Assembly: GCA_019352195.1 (NCBI GenBank)
Contig: JACAFG010000002.1
Coordinates: 19,120 to 83,119, forward strand
Direction of reading: 5' to 3'
Origin: Candidatus Saccharimonadota bacterium
Lineage (GTDB): Bacteria; Patescibacteriota; Saccharimonadia; UBA4664
DNA: 64,000 nt
Both the position numbers and the translations under genes were made by a program. Under the pieces are notes generated by a model that was not told where the DNA came from, ran no database searches, and was given only the letters and a program-made list of their open reading frames with translations. Every line of letters begins with the position of its first letter. The first letter of the stretch is position 1. Positions 26,492-62,072 of the stretch are shown here, piece by piece.

Positions 26492-27595
26492 TTGCCCAGA
26501 AAAGCTGTTGAAACCGAAGAAACTGCTGACCAAAGTAGCGTATCGCCCGAAGTTGCTCGCTTAATTGCCAAAGGCAAAGAGCAGGGTTACGTTACGCAGC
26601 AAGAAATTGCCTCTGTTTTGCCCGAAGCCGAAGAGAACCTCGAAGAGCTCGACGAGCTCTATGCGGCGTTGCTCGAGCAAGGTGTTGAAATCACCGACCA
26701 GAAAGATTCGCTCATCTGGGACAAAGAAGAAGAAGAAGCCGATACCGGCGATGACTATATAAAAGATATCGCCGACGACTCGGTACGATTGTACTTGCGC
26801 GAGATTGGTAAAATCCCGTTGCTTACTGGTGAACAGGAAGTGATGCTGGCCAAGCGCATTGAAGCGGGCGACAAGGGTGCCAAAGACGCCATGGCTGAGG
26901 CCAACATGCGTCTTGTGGTGTCGATTGCCAAAAAGTACATTGGCCGCGGCTTGGACTTGTTGGACTTAATCCAAGAAGGTAACACCGGCCTGCTCCGCGC
27001 TGTGGAGAAGTTTGACTATACCAAGGGCTACAAGTTCTCGACGTATGCCACCTGGTGGATTCGTCAGGCTATTACGCGCGCCATTGCCGACCAAGCTCGC
27101 ACCATCCGTATTCCCGTGCACATGGTTGAAACCATTAATAAGCTCATTCGTACCCAGCGCCGCTTGGTTCAGGAACTAGGCCGCGAACCGCTGCCGGAAG
27201 AAATTGCGGCCGAGATGGAAATGGATGTTGAGAAAGTTAATCACATCCTCAAGATCAAGCAGGACATCGTGTCGCTTGAGGCGCCGGTGGGCGAAGAGGA
27301 AGACTCTCAACTGGGCGACTTTATTGCCGACGAAGATAGTTTGACGCCGGAAGAAGCCGCCACGCACCAGTTGCTTAAAGAGCACGTCAATCAGGTGTTG
27401 GCTTTGCTGACGCCGCGCGAGCAAAAGATTTTGCGTATGCGATTTGGTCTCGAAGATGGCCGTAGTCACACGCTTGAAGAAGTTGGTCAGGAATTTGGCG
27501 TGACGCGCGAGCGCATTCGCCAGATTGAGGCTAAAGCTTTGGCGAAACTGCGTAAGCACCGCGAAAGCAAGAAACTCAAGGATTACCTGCGGTAA
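26492..27595 (+). CDS. rpoD: RNA polymerase sigma factor RpoD (sigma-70)
   Basis: Regions 1.2 to 4.2 ([55 protein letters not shown]). Six-frame ORF begins at 26411. TTG at 26492 follows a GGAGAAG RBS; start uncertain. Confidence 0.85.
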
Positions 27596-27603
27596 TCTGA
27601 GCG

Positions 27604-27649
27604 ATATAATATCAAAAAGAGCCCAGTGGGGCTCTTTTTGATATTATAT
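27604..27649. terminator. bidirectional intrinsic terminator (21-bp perfect palindrome with A- and T-tracts)
   Basis: atataatatcaaaaagagccc-agtg-gggctctttttgatattatat. Confidence 0.75.
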
Positions 27650-27668
27650 CTGTTAGGAGATCACGTAA

Positions 27669-28299
27669 GTGGGAAATGACGCATACAAATGGGTCCGTAA
27701 GAATGATGAGGAAATTATTCTCCGTTTTGCTGATCCAAGGATAATAAGGCCAGTTGAAAATCCAATTACTTTTTTATGGCTGGCTCGCCCGGCGCCGGTA
27801 AGACTGAATGGGCACGTTCATTGATCGTCAACCTCGCAAATGACAAAGAAGAACCGACAGAGTTTGTTCACATAGACCCTGACGAAATAAGAAAGCTATT
27901 TGATGGCTATAATGGCACAAATGTTTCGGAATTTACTCGAGCAACTAGTACTGCGGTAGGACGTATTCTTGATCGGACAAATCGTCTTGGACAAAACGTC
28001 ATTGTCGACGGGACCTTATCCAGGTATGATGCCGTGGCGAAAGACGTTGATTCTTATATAGGAAACATGGTCGGAGCACAGTAATTTTCTTTGTATACCA
28101 AAAGCCGGAATTAGCTTGGTATTTCACGAAGGCAAGGGCAGCTGACCCTGAAGACGGGCGCGTTGTTGATAAGCTGACATCGATTGCCGCATACGTGTAG
28201 TCTATCCAAAATGCCAACGCCTTAAAGCGTAAATACGGATCACATATACAACTTCATATCATTGAAAAAGATGCGTTGAATAGGGTAAAAAAGGTTTAA
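27669..28299 (+). pseudogene. zeta-toxin-like / AAA_33-type P-loop kinase gene, degraded by two frameshifts and one in-frame TAG
   Basis: GTG at 27669 after an aggaga RBS gives MGNDAYKWVRKNDEEIILRFADPRIIRPVENPITF. A T6 run at 27770..27775 shifts frame into MAGSPGAGKTEWARSLIV... (Walker A), continuing to 28084. Protein-like continuation lies in a third frame from 28087 (FFVYQKPELAWYFTKARAADPEDGRVVDKLTSIAAYV). An in-frame TAG at 28198 is followed by SIQNANALKRKYGSHIQLHIIEKDALNRVKKV, ending at 28299. Confidence 0.5.
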
Positions 28300-28316
28300 T
28301 TTTAATAAACACACTA

Positions 28317-28345
28317 TTGACAACTATGTTGAAAAAGTCTATAGT
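28317..28345 (+). promoter_or_regulatory. near-consensus sigma70 promoter (TTGACA, 17-nt spacer, TATAGT) for the small basic-protein gene
   Basis: TTGACAactatgttgaaaaagtcTATAGT. Confidence 0.6.
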
Positions 28346-28370
28346 ATTAATTAATTGGAGGAACTAATTA

Positions 28371-28544
28371 ATGTTTAATCTCTTGAAAAAAGATAAACCA
28401 AAAAAGAAGAACCTTCTGGAATTGCCAGCAGCTAAACAAAAGAAGAGTTACAAAGAAGCAGCCGATAGATCAATAGACATGCAAGTGGAGGTTGTGAACA
28501 AATATAAAAATGCGCTTGGCGAAAAAATCGAGCGTAATAGATAG
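28371..28544 (+). CDS. small lysine-rich basic protein (57 aa), unknown function
   Basis: Complete expression unit: promoter 28317..28345, GGAGG RBS (28357..28361), ATG, intrinsic terminator 28552..28573. MFNLLKKDKPKKKNLLELPAAKQKKSYKEAADRSIDMQVEVVNKYKNALGEKIERNR. Confidence 0.5.
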   Translation: MFNLLKKDKPKKKNLLELPAAKQKKSYKEAADRSIDMQVEVVNKYKNALGEKIERNR

Positions 28545-28551
28545 CTAAACT

Positions 28552-28573
28552 AGAGTCCTACGGGGCTCTTTTT
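28552..28573 (+). terminator. intrinsic terminator after the small basic-protein gene
   Basis: agagtcc-tacg-gggctct (one G.U) followed by ttttg. Confidence 0.6.
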
Positions 28574-28648
28574 GAATCAAAAACCAATCTGTTTCAGGTT
28601 GTGCTTCATGGCTACGCGATCTACGATAGAACCAACAAGAGAGTGCGA

Positions 28649-30043
28649 ATGGAACGTGAACTAACTGAGAAATGTGCCGTGTTTGGTGCGCTCACGACGA
28701 GCCGCTATGCTACGCGTCTGAGGTATTATGGACTGTTTGCACTGCAGCATCGCGGTCAGGAGAGCTCAGGAATTGCGAGCTCAATTGAAGGCGGCTTGAA
28801 GCGCCACGCCGGGGAAGGCCTGGTAGCGCATGTGTACCGCGCCGAAGATTTGGACGATCTGAAAAGCAGTTTAGCGATTGGTCATAATAGATATGCGACT
28901 TCTGGCGGTAATCCTGGTGACCAAGTACAGCCAATTGTGGACTCTACCCTTGGATTTGCGTTTGCCCACAACGGAAATTTGCCAGAAACCGTGAAGCTGG
29001 AGAAGTTTCTATCGGAGCACGGTATTCGTCATGATGATGTTAGTGATTCGCGCATGATGGCGCTAGCCATTGGATGTTACATGAGTGAGGGTAATAGCCT
29101 AACGGCAGCGATAGAACTGGCATGGCCCTTATTTACCGGCGCTTTTTTATGTGTCGCCATGACTGAAGATACGATAGCTGGGTTTAGGGACGCTTACGGC
29201 ATCCGGCCCTTGTCGTTAGGTAAGCTTGATGATGGATACGCCATTGCTTCGGAGACGTGCGCCTTTGATACCGTAGGGGCGGCGTTCTTGCGCGATATTA
29301 AGCCCGGCGAGCTCGTGACAGTGACGGCGCAAGGGGTGAAGTATAAGCAAGTGGTAGTCTCGCCGCGGACGGCGCTCGACGTGTTTGAATATGTTTATTT
29401 TGCTCGTCCTGACAGCATGATCATGGGCCGGCGCGTAAACGAGGTTCGTCGCAAACTGGGCGAAAATTTGGCGCGTGAATTCAAAATTGAAGCTGATGTG
29501 GTGGTGCCGGTGCCCGATTCAGCGATTCCGGCGGCCCTTGGCTACGCGGCGGCGACGGGGATACGGTTTGACCATGGCTTCATCAAAAATCGGTATATTC
29601 ACCGGACGTTTATTAAGCCAACCCAGGAAATGCGTGAGTGTGATGTTAAAACCAAGCTCAATCCGGTGCCTGAGGCGGTGATGGGTAAGCGGGTGATTGT
29701 GATCGATGACTCAATTGTGCGCGGTACGACCACGGCGCAGATCGTCGATATGCTTTATGGCGCGGGTGCTACCCAGGTGCACGTGCTCGTGAGCTCGCCG
29801 CCAGTTAAGTTTCCCGATTTTTACGGTATTAATACACCCGATCCGCGCGAACTTATTGCCTCATATATGACTGAGGACGAAATCCGCGATCAAATGGGGG
29901 CAGGTTCACTCGGGTATTTGTCGATGGATGGAATGATTTCAGCCACCGGCTGGCCCAAAAATAAGCTCAATACCAGTAGTTTTGACGGTGAATATCCGAT
30001 TGATATTGGTGACCGGGCTCGGGTCATTTTACGCTCCCGCTAG
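28649..30043 (+). CDS. purF: amidophosphoribosyltransferase
   Basis: Ntn Cys in (M)ERELTEKCAVFGAL and PRTase motif VIVIDDSIVRGTT. Six-frame ORF begins at 28601 (GTG). ATG 28649 gives a short propeptide before Cys. Confidence 0.85.
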   Translation: MERELTEKCAVFGALTTSRYATRLRYYGLFALQHRGQESSGIASSIEGGLKRHAGEGLVAHVYRAEDLDDLKSSLAIGHNRYATSGGNPGDQVQPIVDSTLGFAFAHNGNLPETVKLEKFLSEHGIRHDDVSDSRMMALAIGCYMSEGNSLTAAIELAWPLFTGAFLCVAMTEDTIAGFRDAYGIRPLSLGKLDDGYAIASETCAFDTVGAAFLRDIKPGELVTVTAQGVKYKQVVVSPRTALDVFEYVYFARPDSMIMGRRVNEVRRKLGENLAREFKIEADVVVPVPDSAIPAALGYAAATGIRFDHGFIKNRYIHRTFIKPTQEMRECDVKTKLNPVPEAVMGKRVIVIDDSIVRGTTTAQIVDMLYGAGATQVHVLVSSPPVKFPDFYGINTPDPRELIASYMTEDEIRDQMGAGSLGYLSMDGMISATGWPKNKLNTSSFDGEYPIDIGDRARVILRSR

Positions 30044-30126: not shown

Positions 30127-30978
30127 ATGATCGTGACTGATATCTCGCCTGCTCGGTGGGCGACGCTGATTGACGTTCTTGGCATGACCACCGCGCCGGA
30201 TCGTACGCGATTGGTTCAGATGCTTGAAGGAGACAAGCCTTTGGGCGTCATTGGGGCCGGCTCGGATAGCGGCCAACTGCTCCTCGTCCTCATGTCGATG
30301 CGCAAATACCGCGAACTCGTGCGTACCGCTGATGTCGACATTCCGCTGTTTGTGCCGGTATCACTGAGCGATCTGGCTCCCGAGGCGTTATCGCGGCTAG
30401 AAACGTTTGGCATGGTCGATGCCGACGGTAACCCGCGGTGCGATATTTCCACCGTAGAACTGGCCGGCTGGTTTCGTAACCGGACGTACGCCCGAGCGCG
30501 TAAGGACAACGACAATCTGGTCTTGCCGGAGAATTGTCCGGATACGTGGGCGCCGGCATCAGGGGTGTCGCGTGCTCATGTCGCAATGGCGGGTGATGTC
30601 GGGATGTGCCGTCACTCAACTCGCGATGTCCGTGCCATTGGCAACGTGTATAAGTGGTTCGACCTCGACCTCGTGCCGGTCGGGGGTTCGGTGTGGCGAC
30701 TGAGCCATAACCGCACGCTATGGCACTTCACCCGCTGCTCCCACGGTTGGTCGGTGCTGTGTGTGCCACATGCCTATTGGCCGGAGCCGCCTAGCAAGTG
30801 CAGCAATATTGGATCGCGTTGGTCTCGGAAGAATGGCACAGGCCGTTCTTCCGAGACCAATTGTCGTAATAAAGGTATAATTAAGATCTATGGCACAAGC
30901 AAAAGAGCGACTAGTACTAGTAGATGGGTCGGCGGTGTTTTACCGCGGCTATTACGCGATTCCGCATTTATCAAATAA
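30127..30978 (+). CDS. hypothetical protein in a GC-rich segment; the C-terminal part is probably not real because it overlaps the polA start by 89 nt
   Basis: The first roughly 140 aa are protein-like. The tail is Trp/Cys/Arg-rich and runs across the polA RBS and start. Confidence 0.3.
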   Translation: MIVTDISPARWATLIDVLGMTTAPDRTRLVQMLEGDKPLGVIGAGSDSGQLLLVLMSMRKYRELVRTADVDIPLFVPVSLSDLAPEALSRLETFGMVDADGNPRCDISTVELAGWFRNRTYARARKDNDNLVLPENCPDTWAPASGVSRAHVAMAGDVGMCRHSTRDVRAIGNVYKWFDLDLVPVGGSVWRLSHNRTLWHFTRCSHGWSVLCVPHAYWPEPPSKCSNIGSRWSRKNGTGRSSETNCRNKGIIKIYGTSKRATSTSRWVGGVLPRLLRDSAFIK

Positions 30979-50057: not shown

Positions 50058-50259
50058 GAGGAAGTTATCCAGTTTTATAGGTGTCCACGGTCATTTCTGA
50101 TATCTGTATGCCTCAAATTATCGAAGTAGTGCAACCGAAACAAATAATTGACAAATTACTAATTAATCAGTATACTAGTACTACTTTCACGATTGTGAGA
50201 ACCTTGATCTTTGAATCGGCCAAACGGCCGATTAACTATTTTTCGACCTGGAGGCTGAC

Positions 50260-61949: not shown

Positions 61950-62072
61950 TTGACCAACAAGCCAAAATCACCTATAATTGGCAAGTTTACAACCATTAAC
62001 CTTTTTGCGCTGCGCCTTAGGCGCACCGTAACACCTCTGCCAAACACAGAGGGTTTCCATAGAAAGGAAGCG
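61950..62072 (+). promoter_or_regulatory. rpsF operon promoter (TTGACC, 17-nt spacer, TATAAT) plus a structured roughly 85-nt leader (candidate S6:S18 autoregulatory element)
   Basis: TTGACCaacaagccaaaatcaccTATAAT. Leader hairpins tgcgcc-ttag-gcgca and cctctg-ccaaaca-cagagg. aaggaag RBS. Confidence 0.5.

Follow-up and report, generated by a model that had tools for sequence, protein, structure and literature searches.

An earlier sequence-only reading took the 57-codon gene in the window (the whole stretch of DNA analysed here, 64,000 nt) for a strong expression unit. The gene does not encode a core small protein; it is one half of a mobile cassette that has otherwise decayed. The cassette was probably a toxin-first, zeta-type toxin-antitoxin (TA)-like pair, with a small gene whose promoter is embedded in the kinase gene; in the window the kinase is dead and the small gene is an orphan. 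For the window itself, what follows in practice is modest.

Signals and reading frame of the small gene

The sequence-only reading had reported a promoter, a ribosome-binding site (RBS), an open reading frame (ORF) and a terminator within 28317-28573, and all four were located there:

28317-28345, + strand: sigma-70-type promoter TTGACA-17-TATAGT, on codons I-D-N...Y-S of the conserved kinase C-terminal motif IDNYVEKVYS
28357-28361, + strand: Shine-Dalgarno sequence GGAGG, 9 nt 5′ of the ATG, within ancestral L-E-E codons of the kinase tail
28371-28544, + strand: small basic helical protein, 57 aa (HJC99_01595), candidate antitoxin, from a family encoded 3′ of a zeta-like kinase clade
28552-28575, + strand: intrinsic terminator hairpin and T-run, also copy 2 of a 24-nt direct repeat and the right cassette border

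The −35 (TTGACA, 28317-28322) and −10 (TATAGT, 28340-28345) hexamers are separated by a 17-nt spacer and match the consensus at 11 of 12 positions. Four promoter-like sites with at least 11 of 12 matches were found in the 64-kb window, versus 0.47 expected from composition-preserving shuffles. The terminator hairpin (28552-28569) consists of a 7-bp stem and a 4-nt loop, followed by TTTTT; its centroid energy was −11.1 kcal/mol, with z = −2.5 relative to shuffles. An Rfam scan of 27500-29000 at permissive E-values gave only chance miRNA and snoRNA matches, all outside the unit, and no known RNA element.

The ORF starts with ATG at 28371. Its product is basic and lysine-rich as had been described (pI 9.9, net charge about +7.5), with 13 lysines rather than the 14 counted earlier. 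The ORF had been thought likely to be missed by default; GenBank already lists it as a hypothetical protein, HJC99_01595, in assembly GCA_017884045.1 of Candidatus Saccharibacteria bacterium. The genome is a metagenome-assembled one (MAG).

A dead kinase gene upstream

The 700 nt in front of the small ORF contain the remains of a kinase gene on the same strand:

27669-28370, + strand: zeta-toxin-family (PF06414) kinase pseudogene, readable only as a join of three frames
near the T-run at about 27770-27775, + strand: frameshift 1
near 28080-28090, + strand: frameshift 2
28198-28200, + strand: in-frame TAG
28287-28292, + strand: 1-nt insertion in an A-run
28352-28354, + strand: in-frame TAA

With three frameshifts and two stop codons, this kinase gene is dead. 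The three-frame join matched Pfam Zeta_toxin (E = 1.7e-28, profile positions 13-188 of 199), aligned end to end with intact homologues of 233-251 aa, and has kept its motifs Walker A, IDPDEIR and DGT. Across the kinase clade, GSPGAGKTE and IDPDEIR are conserved; the nearest solved structure to this clade in a PDB profile search was PezT (E = 2e-9). Upstream of the pseudogene there is only the rpoD terminator, and no epsilon/PezA-type antitoxin gene. PADLOC, run on the small proteins and the kinases, matched no defence-system model.

The end of the reconstructed kinase reaches the start of the small ORF, and the ancestral ATGA stop/start overlap of the two genes has been lost in the window. Both the promoter and the RBS of the small gene fall within the final ~25 codons of the kinase. 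The unit had been taken for a complete, stand-alone one; two of its signals instead sit inside the degraded 3′ end of the pseudogene. That the promoter is former kinase coding sequence had been overlooked.

Selection on the embedded promoter

Most related loci have the hexamers at the corresponding position. In the commonest register, the family promoter TTGAC-N18-TAxxxT lies in the kinase motif ID.Y.K..Y[TNS], ~52-55 nt 5′ of the small ORF start; the window promoter lies at −54. Of 72 loci, 49 had a promoter-like pair with at least 10 of 12 matches 40-75 nt 5′ of the small ORF start, and the spacer was 17 nt in nearly all of them; comparable pairs were rare elsewhere in the 700 nt upstream.

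Codon choice at the hexamers was analysed in 84 distinct loci. At the −35 site, the Ile codon was ATT in all 65 loci scored (46% gene-wide), and the Asp codon was GAC in 59 of 80 (74%, versus 29% gene-wide). At the −10 site, the Thr codon was ACT in 52 of 52 (31% gene-wide), and the last base of the hexamer was T in 83 of 84 loci. Control conserved columns (12 Ile, 5 Asp, 3 Thr) showed no comparable codon skew. These codon statistics demonstrated that synonymous-site selection maintains both hexamers of the predicted promoter. The function assigned to the hexamers is deduced from their conservation together with these statistics.

A small-protein family linked to the kinase

Homologues of the small protein were found when databases were searched, a check that had been proposed earlier. 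phmmer with the window protein against 1.84 billion representatives returned only four proteins (57-59 aa; E = 1.7e-7 to 7.7e-4), and a profile search of 5.8 billion proteins returned only 27 clusters (49-59 aa). A word-indexed search with the single window protein had retrieved itself alone; the family surfaced through exhaustive phmmer and context look-ups. Conservation of the reading frame, also put forward as a check, was borne out. The closest relative, P0126, is 65% identical to the window protein, with pN/pS of about 0.18; as synonymous sites have reached saturation (pS about 1), this ratio covers the whole history of the gene rather than the period since kinase death and does not date any relaxation. 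An HMM built from kinase-adjacent small ORFs, with the window protein and its close relatives left out, scored the window protein at 31 bits (conditional E = 1e-11). These findings support the view that the 57-codon gene is real and conserved, encodes a protein and has a promoter of its own.

The small gene is obligately linked to the kinase gene. All four small-protein homologues looked up lie directly 3′ of a gene that they overlap by 4-8 nt; this is a Zeta_toxin gene in three, and in the fourth locus (L053) a contig-cut fragment of 84 aa that aligns with the kinase C-terminus. Starting from the kinase side, three homologues were examined: in the two with an undisrupted locus (P0008 and P0006, both intact), a family member of 55 or 53 aa starts 4 nt before the kinase stop, and the third (P0013, L052) has its locus split by an IS element. 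Metagenome loci were gathered by kinase alignment alone, since the small-protein alignment was too diverse for search patterns. Among 80 such loci with intact kinase relatives, 72 matched the small-protein HMM immediately 3′ of the kinase; of the 8 misses, 5 were divergent members found by eye and 3 were cut by a contig end. A small-protein homologue was thereby encoded in 77 of the 77 loci with enough downstream sequence. An ATGA overlap was frequent, and the start-stop spacing was −4 in 26 loci. A metagenome scan with the three closest small-protein sequences gave no confirmed locus. The window protein itself has the profile match, the adjacent same-strand PF06414 gene (as a pseudogene) and the embedded promoter that characterize the family.

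Family members are 44-68 aa long and share the core FF(D/E)L(S/P)xxEKKKIIKKAxxxANxxQxxLxxxY, with A or S before N. The window protein departs from this core at L15/L16 (for F), K22 (for E), S26 (for I) and I35 (for N). Gln38 is the only invariant residue after Met1; A30, A/S34, N35, Q38, L41 and Y45 make up a conserved face of the predicted helix. Pfam and NCBIfam searches with the window protein gave only a noise match (DUF6435, E = 5.7 over 13 residues). The AlphaFold model is one long helix (residues 20-56, pLDDT up to 98), and Foldseek against PDB returned nothing. PDB profile searches with the small family gave no match, and no epsilon, PezA or AvrRxo1-ORF2/Arc1 chain. A ribbon-helix-helix (RHH) fold of the omega/CopG/Arc type, suggested by the pattern LELPxxxxKK..A..S, was not backed by AlphaFold, Pfam or Foldseek.

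The strict linkage would also suit a regulator or accessory subunit of the kinase: an omega-like DNA/RNA-binding repressor, a specificity or activator subunit, or a phospho-acceptor. The strongly basic, Lys-rich composition with its conserved EKKKII-KKA stretch and the lack of similarity to any known antitoxin point in the same direction. However, the predicted single helix has no second helix or turn and is neither RHH nor helix-turn-helix (HTH). Among 67 family members scanned, Pfam gave only scattered chance matches, with no DNA-binding family and no RHH at E ≤ 0.1. There is no invariant Ser, Thr or Tyr column that could serve a phospho-acceptor, and a promoter of its own would be of little use to an accessory subunit once its enzyme was lost. 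We regard a regulatory or accessory role as improbable.

Borders and distribution of the cassette

The cassette is an island of low GC content (28-43%, versus 52.5% in the window) at a variable spot between rpoD and purF. Its left border is formed by the following features:

27603-27650, unstranded: bidirectional terminator after rpoD, with a 22-nt perfect inverted repeat; left border of the low-GC cassette
27618-27641: copy 1 of the 24-nt direct repeat, inside the post-rpoD terminator

In the window, the 24-nt direct repeat occurs only at the two cassette-border sites (0 expected by chance). Homology with the closest related cassette (L053) stops at the stop codon of the small ORF, just 5′ of the terminator, and the genes flanking the cassette vary from locus to locus. 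The kinase/small-gene modules are compact and occur on chromosomes and plasmids; one, comprising QXN27573.1 and QXN27572.1, is on the Shewanella putrefaciens plasmid pSA70-4, beside an integrase fragment. The distribution of the cassette is patchy and mobile-like. The phage collection yielded a single partial kinase match, in an unannotated Enterococcus phage record, and no evidence of a phage-borne cassette.

Conservation in related genomes, proposed earlier as a check, was not seen at this locus: the small protein was found neither in the syntenic rpoD-purF interval nor elsewhere in the fetched loci of related Saccharimonadia, whose PurF is 60-73% identical. This absence bears on the earlier suggestion of a nucleoid-associated, ribosome-associated or stress protein. 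Such an independent housekeeping protein would fit the basic composition and the strength of the expression signals; however, a family of so few clusters, with members always beside a zeta-like kinase gene, no Pfam or NCBIfam match and no counterpart in these relatives, makes a housekeeping role very improbable.

The unit might also be a leader or attenuator by which promoter, short ORF and terminator control purF. The probable purF start, at 28649, is some 75 nt beyond the terminator, and no good promoter-like site lies between the two. Against this, the homologues of the ORF, promoter and RBS are in cassettes beside unrelated genes (a pilin-like gene in L053; others in L049, L051, L054 and L056), that homology ends at the small ORF stop codon, the purF genes of relatives have no such leader, and Rfam gave no match. 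Because homology tracks the cassette and not purF, a leader was rejected, and we give it almost no chance. Read-through from the embedded promoter could add to purF transcription as a side effect.

Loss of the kinase and retention of the small gene

A broken kinase beside a retained small gene recurs independently in the window and in three other loci:

L052: IS element inserted just 5′ of the −35 hexamer
L122: in-frame deletion of about 45 aa in the kinase
L138: in-frame stop in the kinase

The ratio of broken kinase to broken small gene was 4:0, which is not significant given the four-fold difference in gene length; such an excess is what a target four times as large leads one to expect. Five disabling lesions in about 700 nt of kinase sequence correspond to ~1.2 expected in 174 nt, with a probability of about 0.3 of finding none. 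The intact 57-codon ORF is weak evidence for present-day selection.

The small ORF may accordingly be read in another way, as a non-functional relic of the same cassette that has drifted since kinase death and has had no disabling mutation so far. The lesion density just given leaves room for this, and the whole cassette is a low-GC insert absent from relatives. At position 26, the window protein has Ser in place of the I, L, V or F found in 65 of 67 family members, and this residue may be a sign of relaxed constraint. On the other side, the promoter, RBS, start codon, reading frame and terminator are all intact beside ~700 nt with five lesions, the same combination of broken kinase with intact promoter and small gene is found in the three loci above, and arc1 genes beside avrRxo1 pseudogenes have been reported in a like state (PMC4938570). 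A drifting relic is in our view rather unlikely, and the leading one among the alternatives to an orphan from a TA-like pair.

Discussion

An intact cassette consists of a zeta-toxin-family P-loop kinase gene (about 235 aa) followed by a gene for a basic, mostly single-helix protein (about 45-68 aa), which abuts or overlaps the kinase stop, often as ATGA. Because the small gene has its own promoter and Shine-Dalgarno sequence, both within the final ~25 codons of the kinase gene, its product could be made independently of the kinase, and probably in excess. We propose that its helix would bind the kinase and neutralise it, as in a toxin-first type II TA module, and that expression from the internal promoter would ensure an excess of antidote. 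In the window, the promoter-RBS-ORF-terminator unit of the small gene is the only intact remnant; such an orphan antitoxin-like gene may still be useful, for example against incoming homologous cassettes, or may simply have yet to decay.

The antitoxin role is deduced from the logic of the gene neighbourhood, and three observations run counter to it. The small protein is strongly basic, and many direct-binding antitoxins are acidic. The gene order is the reverse of that in classical epsilon/zeta and PezAT. No similarity of the protein to epsilon, PezA or Arc1 could be detected.

Zeta/PezT kinases form one of the major toxin families. Many members have been reported as "orphan", without an antitoxin (PMC10532202). 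In the present analysis, one whole clade of zeta-like kinases of 233-251 aa is invariably followed by a tiny, predicted helical protein undescribed in current databases, and these proteins are concrete candidates for a new family of antitoxins, a role that can be put to the test. A broader proposal, which we find plausible but hold only tentatively, is that the family is an undescribed class of antitoxins; that many "orphan" PezT/zeta-like kinases of Patescibacteria/CPR and of proteobacterial plasmids would, with it, be complete toxin-first TA or defence modules; that, in an unusual design, the antitoxin promoter and RBS would lie in the conserved C-terminal motif of the toxin and be held there by synonymous-site selection; and that the Saccharibacteria copy would be an orphan antitoxin kept, after the death of the toxin, as immunity against re-invading cassettes. 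The dual use of the sequence, visible in codon choice, provides a clean case of overlapping coding and regulatory constraint. To our knowledge, little is known experimentally about TA biology in Patescibacteria; the presence of the pair on pSA70-4, a plasmid of a cultivable host, makes experiments feasible.

Comparison with known systems

In epsilon/zeta and PezAT (PF06414), the toxin phosphorylates UDP-GlcNAc and inhibits growth, and its partner neutralises it by direct binding. The kinase here belongs to the same Pfam family, with PezT as the nearest solved structure, and these systems are likewise compact, patchily distributed modules on chromosomes and plasmids. They differ in that their antitoxin gene lies upstream, whereas the cassette here has nothing conserved upstream and its partner downstream; it also lacks any epsilon/PezA similarity and any omega or HTH repressor. 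In a 2023 survey of orphan PezT/zeta toxins, new antitoxins were sought only among upstream genes (PMC10532202).

MqsR-MqsA resembles the cassette in having the toxin gene before the antitoxin gene. The RNase MqsR and the zinc/HTH DNA-binding protein MqsA are unrelated to the proteins of the cassette. Antitoxin-specific promoters inside the toxin gene of mqsRA allow independent expression of the antitoxin (PMC6918082). The embedded promoter here, which is predicted from conservation and synonymous-site statistics, follows the same regulatory logic.

AvrRxo1-Arc1 (AvrRxo1-ORF1:ORF2) of Xanthomonas and Acidovorax has a toxin-family kinase gene first and a short helical partner directly 3′, as here. 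AvrRxo1-like proteins are 378-421 aa long, whereas the kinases here are 233-251 aa and closer to PezT. Arc1 has 81-98 aa, 3-4 helices and the motif KExFD(x25-27)(Y/L)ExxYY, whereas the small family has 44-68 aa, one long predicted helix and no Arc1 motif. Distant avrRxo1-like/arc1-like pairs have been reported in Parcubacteria and Candidatus Saccharimonas (PMC4938570). arc1 remains intact downstream of avrRxo1 pseudogenes (PMC4938570); in both systems, the partner gene is retained beside an inactivated toxin-family gene.

Expression unit and kinase pseudogene in the window

The 57-codon unit at 28371-28544 is a real gene, the remaining half of a decayed zeta-type cassette. Its elements are as follows.

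28317-28322, + strand: -35 hexamer TTGACA, 17-nt spacer to the -10
28340-28345, + strand: -10 hexamer TATAGT (-35/-10 pair, 11 of 12 matches)
28357-28361, + strand: GGAGG RBS, 9 nt 5′ of the ATG at 28371
28371 to 28544, + strand: small ORF, 57 codons
28552-28569, + strand: terminator hairpin, 7-bp stem, 4-nt loop, then TTTTT

Near-consensus promoter, RBS, ORF with its stop at 28544 and intrinsic terminator (hairpin energy -11.1 kcal/mol, z = -2.5) were all present as the sequence-only reading had described them. The protein has a pI of 9.9, and its lysines number 13, not 14. The ORF had been thought to escape default annotation; GenBank carries it as hypothetical protein HJC99_01595 (Candidatus Saccharibacteria MAG, GCA_017884045.1).

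Promoter sites with at least 11 of 12 matches are rare in the window: four were found, versus 0.47 expected from shuffles. The other three sigma-70-like sites were:

50148-50176, + strand
61950-61978, + strand
19003-18975, - strand

At least two of these lie just 5′ of ORFs (starts 50260 and 18923). The organism therefore appears to use that consensus, and near-consensus sites in this Saccharibacteria genome seem to be genuine working promoters.

The low-GC stretch around the unit opens with pieces of a zeta-toxin-family gene that are spread over three reading frames. Conceptually joined, they matched Pfam Zeta_toxin (PF06414; E=1.7e-28, profile positions 13-188 of 199) and aligned over their full length to intact homologues (233-251 aa). 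The lesions of this kinase gene were:

near 27770-27775, + strand: frameshift
near 28080-28090, + strand: frameshift
28198-28200, + strand: in-frame TAG
28287-28292, + strand: 1-nt insertion in an A-run
28352-28354, + strand: in-frame TAA

Because two of the five are stop-creating substitutions, homopolymer sequencing errors cannot explain all the damage.

The closest relative of the window protein (P0126, 65% identity) is encoded on L053, a JGI contig of 1080 nt with an intact kinase 3′ end that meets the small ORF in an ATGA overlap. The DNA alignment of the two loci covers the C-terminal part of the kinase together with the small ORF, ending at the latter's stop codon. In L053, ATT GAC AAT TAC GTT GAA AAA GTC TAT AGT encodes kinase residues I-D-N-Y-V-E-K-V-Y-S; residues and hexamers are identical in the window, whose GGAGG lies within L-E-E codons. 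The expression signals first read from the sequence are thus the 3′ end of the defunct kinase gene. A nucleoid-, ribosome- or stress-related role, as first proposed, was not supported.

Genomic context of the cassette

dnaG and rpoD are followed in turn by a bidirectional terminator (27603-27650), low-GC DNA of ~930 bp (28-43%, versus 52.5% for the window), purF and polA. A second assembly (Logan) yielded gene calls for mostly the same neighbouring proteins. The rpoD-purF interval varies among related Saccharimonadia genomes, with the linkage itself preserved: it holds the zeta cassette in the window (27596-28648), MarR-like and MFS transporter genes in locus L002 (3628-5988) and unrelated ORFs in locus L003 (3013-6000).

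A 24-nt direct repeat (27618-27641 and 28552-28575; 83% identity, 934 bp start to start) comprises the rpoD terminator and the small ORF terminator. Its copies flank the low-GC cassette, have identical 3′ halves (GGGGCTCTTTTTGA) and occur nowhere else in the window. The rpoD terminator of L003 is of the same type. The repeat could be a terminator duplicated upon insertion, or merely a lineage-typical terminator style.

The longest purF ORF begins at GTG 28601, and the likely start is ATG 28649 (MERELTEKC...; region 28601-28672), which leaves a short propeptide ahead of the catalytic Cys. No good promoter-like site was found between purF and the small ORF terminator; part of purF transcription may therefore come from read-through. 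Between purF and polA, a 283-aa ORF (30127-30978) of unusually high GC (58-62%) had no Pfam match and overlaps the start (30890) of the longest polA ORF.

A family of small proteins linked to zeta-like kinases

A word-indexed search with the window protein recovered the query alone. Exhaustive phmmer returned four proteins (57-59 aa; E=1.7e-7 to 7.7e-4), and a profile search enlarged the family to 27 clusters of 49-59 aa. The four homologues whose context was retrieved each sit immediately 3′ of a gene that they overlap by 4-8 nt. That gene is Zeta_toxin in three and, in L053, a contig-cut fragment aligning with the kinase C-terminus. Conversely, downstream of the intact kinases P0008 and P0006 lie ORFs of 55 and 53 aa that share the motif and overlap the kinase stop, with start points 4 nt ahead of it.

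Among 80 metagenome loci retrieved by kinase alignment alone, 72 had a small-family ORF directly downstream on the same strand. The eight misses were five divergent members, recognized on inspection, and three loci cut by the contig end; the pair is therefore present in 77 of 77 testable loci. A 4-nt overlap was the commonest stop/start spacing (26 loci). An HMM built only from neighbour-derived ORFs gave the window protein a score of 31 bits (conditional E ~1e-11), and the window protein almost certainly belongs to this family. No member matched Pfam, NCBIfam, PADLOC or PDB sequences.

Named kinase sources include Moranbacteria, Uhrbacteria, Parcubacteria, Curtissbacteria and Pseudomonas. A pair is also carried on Shewanella putrefaciens plasmid pSA70-4 (CP078041.1; locus L139, 2073-2984), where the 54-aa QXN27572.1, annotated "hypothetical protein" and fitting the family motif, comes after QXN27573.1, a zeta toxin family protein. 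This pair adjoins an integrase fragment, its embedded promoter is weak or absent, and it offers a cultivable system. Small ORFs of six loci (L066, L067, L083, L100, L105 and L109) share a conserved C-terminal tail, FGxLQTNxCK, with its Cys; other small proteins end in different Cys-containing tails, and the window protein lacks FGxLQTNxCK.

An AlphaFold2 model from the 27-member alignment (mean pLDDT 82.8) predicted a flexible Lys-rich N-terminus (1-14), a short LLELP turn and a single continuous helix (20-56; central pLDDT 97-98). The conserved positions A30, A/S34, N35, Q38 (invariant), L41 and Y45, which recur at 3-4-residue intervals and are largely small, share one face of the modelled helix, from which we infer a candidate protein-binding face. 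Foldseek found no match to the model, as expected for a single helix.

Selection on the predicted promoter within the kinase gene

In the first seven loci, a promoter-like pair (10-11 of 12 matches, 17-nt spacer) lay 54-55 nt 5′ of the small ORF start. Of the 72 metagenome loci, 49 had a pair with at least 10 of 12 matches at -75 to -40 of that start; such pairs were rare elsewhere across the upstream 700 nt. The hexamers are encoded by a conserved kinase protein motif, ID.Y.K..Y[TNS]. Protein conservation alone could mimic a promoter, so codons were tallied in 84 distinct loci to separate the two effects.

Codon usage at the embedded promoter, with gene-wide share
Ile at -35: ATT 65/65; gene-wide 46%
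Third position of the -35 Ile codon: T 83/84
Asp at -35: GAC 59/80; gene-wide 29%
Thr closing -10: ACT 52/52; gene-wide 31%
Asn closing -10: AAT 21/21; gene-wide 75%
Third position of the codon closing -10: T 83/84

At control columns of the same genes, ATT was used in 37-62% of loci (twelve other conserved Ile columns), GAC in 29-40% (five Asp columns) and ACT in 17-43% (three Thr columns). The skew was limited to the bases defining TTGAC and to the closing T of the -10. Although the loci are related, protein identity of 45-65% makes synonymous sites effectively independent. This pattern is strong evidence of nucleotide-level selection for a predicted promoter inside the kinase gene.

Proposed function and state of the window copy

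These findings demonstrated that the kinase gene and, after it, the gene for the small helical protein form an obligate pair; as read from sequence, the small gene has a dedicated promoter of its own within the kinase gene. Stop/start overlap is frequent, distribution is patchy, neighbours differ by locus and one copy is on a plasmid; the window module is a low-GC insert in an interval that carries other genes in relatives. The pair may be a toxin-first type II toxin-antitoxin-like system, in which the small helix would neutralise the PezT-like kinase and the internal promoter would maintain the neutraliser in excess. We somewhat favour an antitoxin mechanism for the small protein. An intact small gene beside a dead kinase is incompatible with the small protein acting as a toxin restrained by the kinase.

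In the window, the small gene retains promoter, RBS and terminator beside the dead kinase, a state that fits either an antidote or a protein that does no harm. A broken kinase with a kept small gene was also found in three other loci. In L052 (1114-3060), an IS (rve-family transposase, 1825-2823) sits in the 3′ end of the zeta-like gene just 5′ of the -35; past it, TTGATA-17-TATAAT and a small ORF identical to P0136 are intact. In L122 (1489-2242), the kinase has an in-frame deletion of ~45 aa, with TTGAAA-17-TATACT remaining and the small ORF intact. L138 (2-789) has an in-frame kinase stop and an intact small ORF. The 4:0 asymmetry of broken kinases to broken small genes would be expected from gene length alone.

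Intactness of the 57 codons is a weak sign of current selection (P ~0.3 for zero lesions at the neighbouring lesion density). dS is saturated between the window protein and its nearest relative, and window Ser26 replaces a hydrophobic residue conserved family-wide. Whether the window copy still functions is evenly balanced; significance comes mainly from the family-wide finding, not from this relic.

Comparison with known systems

Full-text literature searches found no zeta toxin work in Saccharibacteria (a Patescibacteria match was unrelated) and no mention of COG4185. In a 2023 zeta toxin survey (PMC10532202), "orphan" members were noted and partners were sought among upstream genes only. 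As in epsilon/zeta-PezAT, the kinase here is in PF06414, nearest PezT; unlike those systems, the module has no upstream antitoxin, and its small protein shows no homology to either epsilon or PezA. The architecture is common to AvrRxo1-Arc1, which differs in both protein sizes, in the partner motif and in detectable homology. Promoters within mqsR drive mqsA (PMC6918082), and in avrRxo1-arc1 the downstream antitoxin gene is intact beside toxin pseudogenes (PMC4938570); both are precedents for the proposed module logic.
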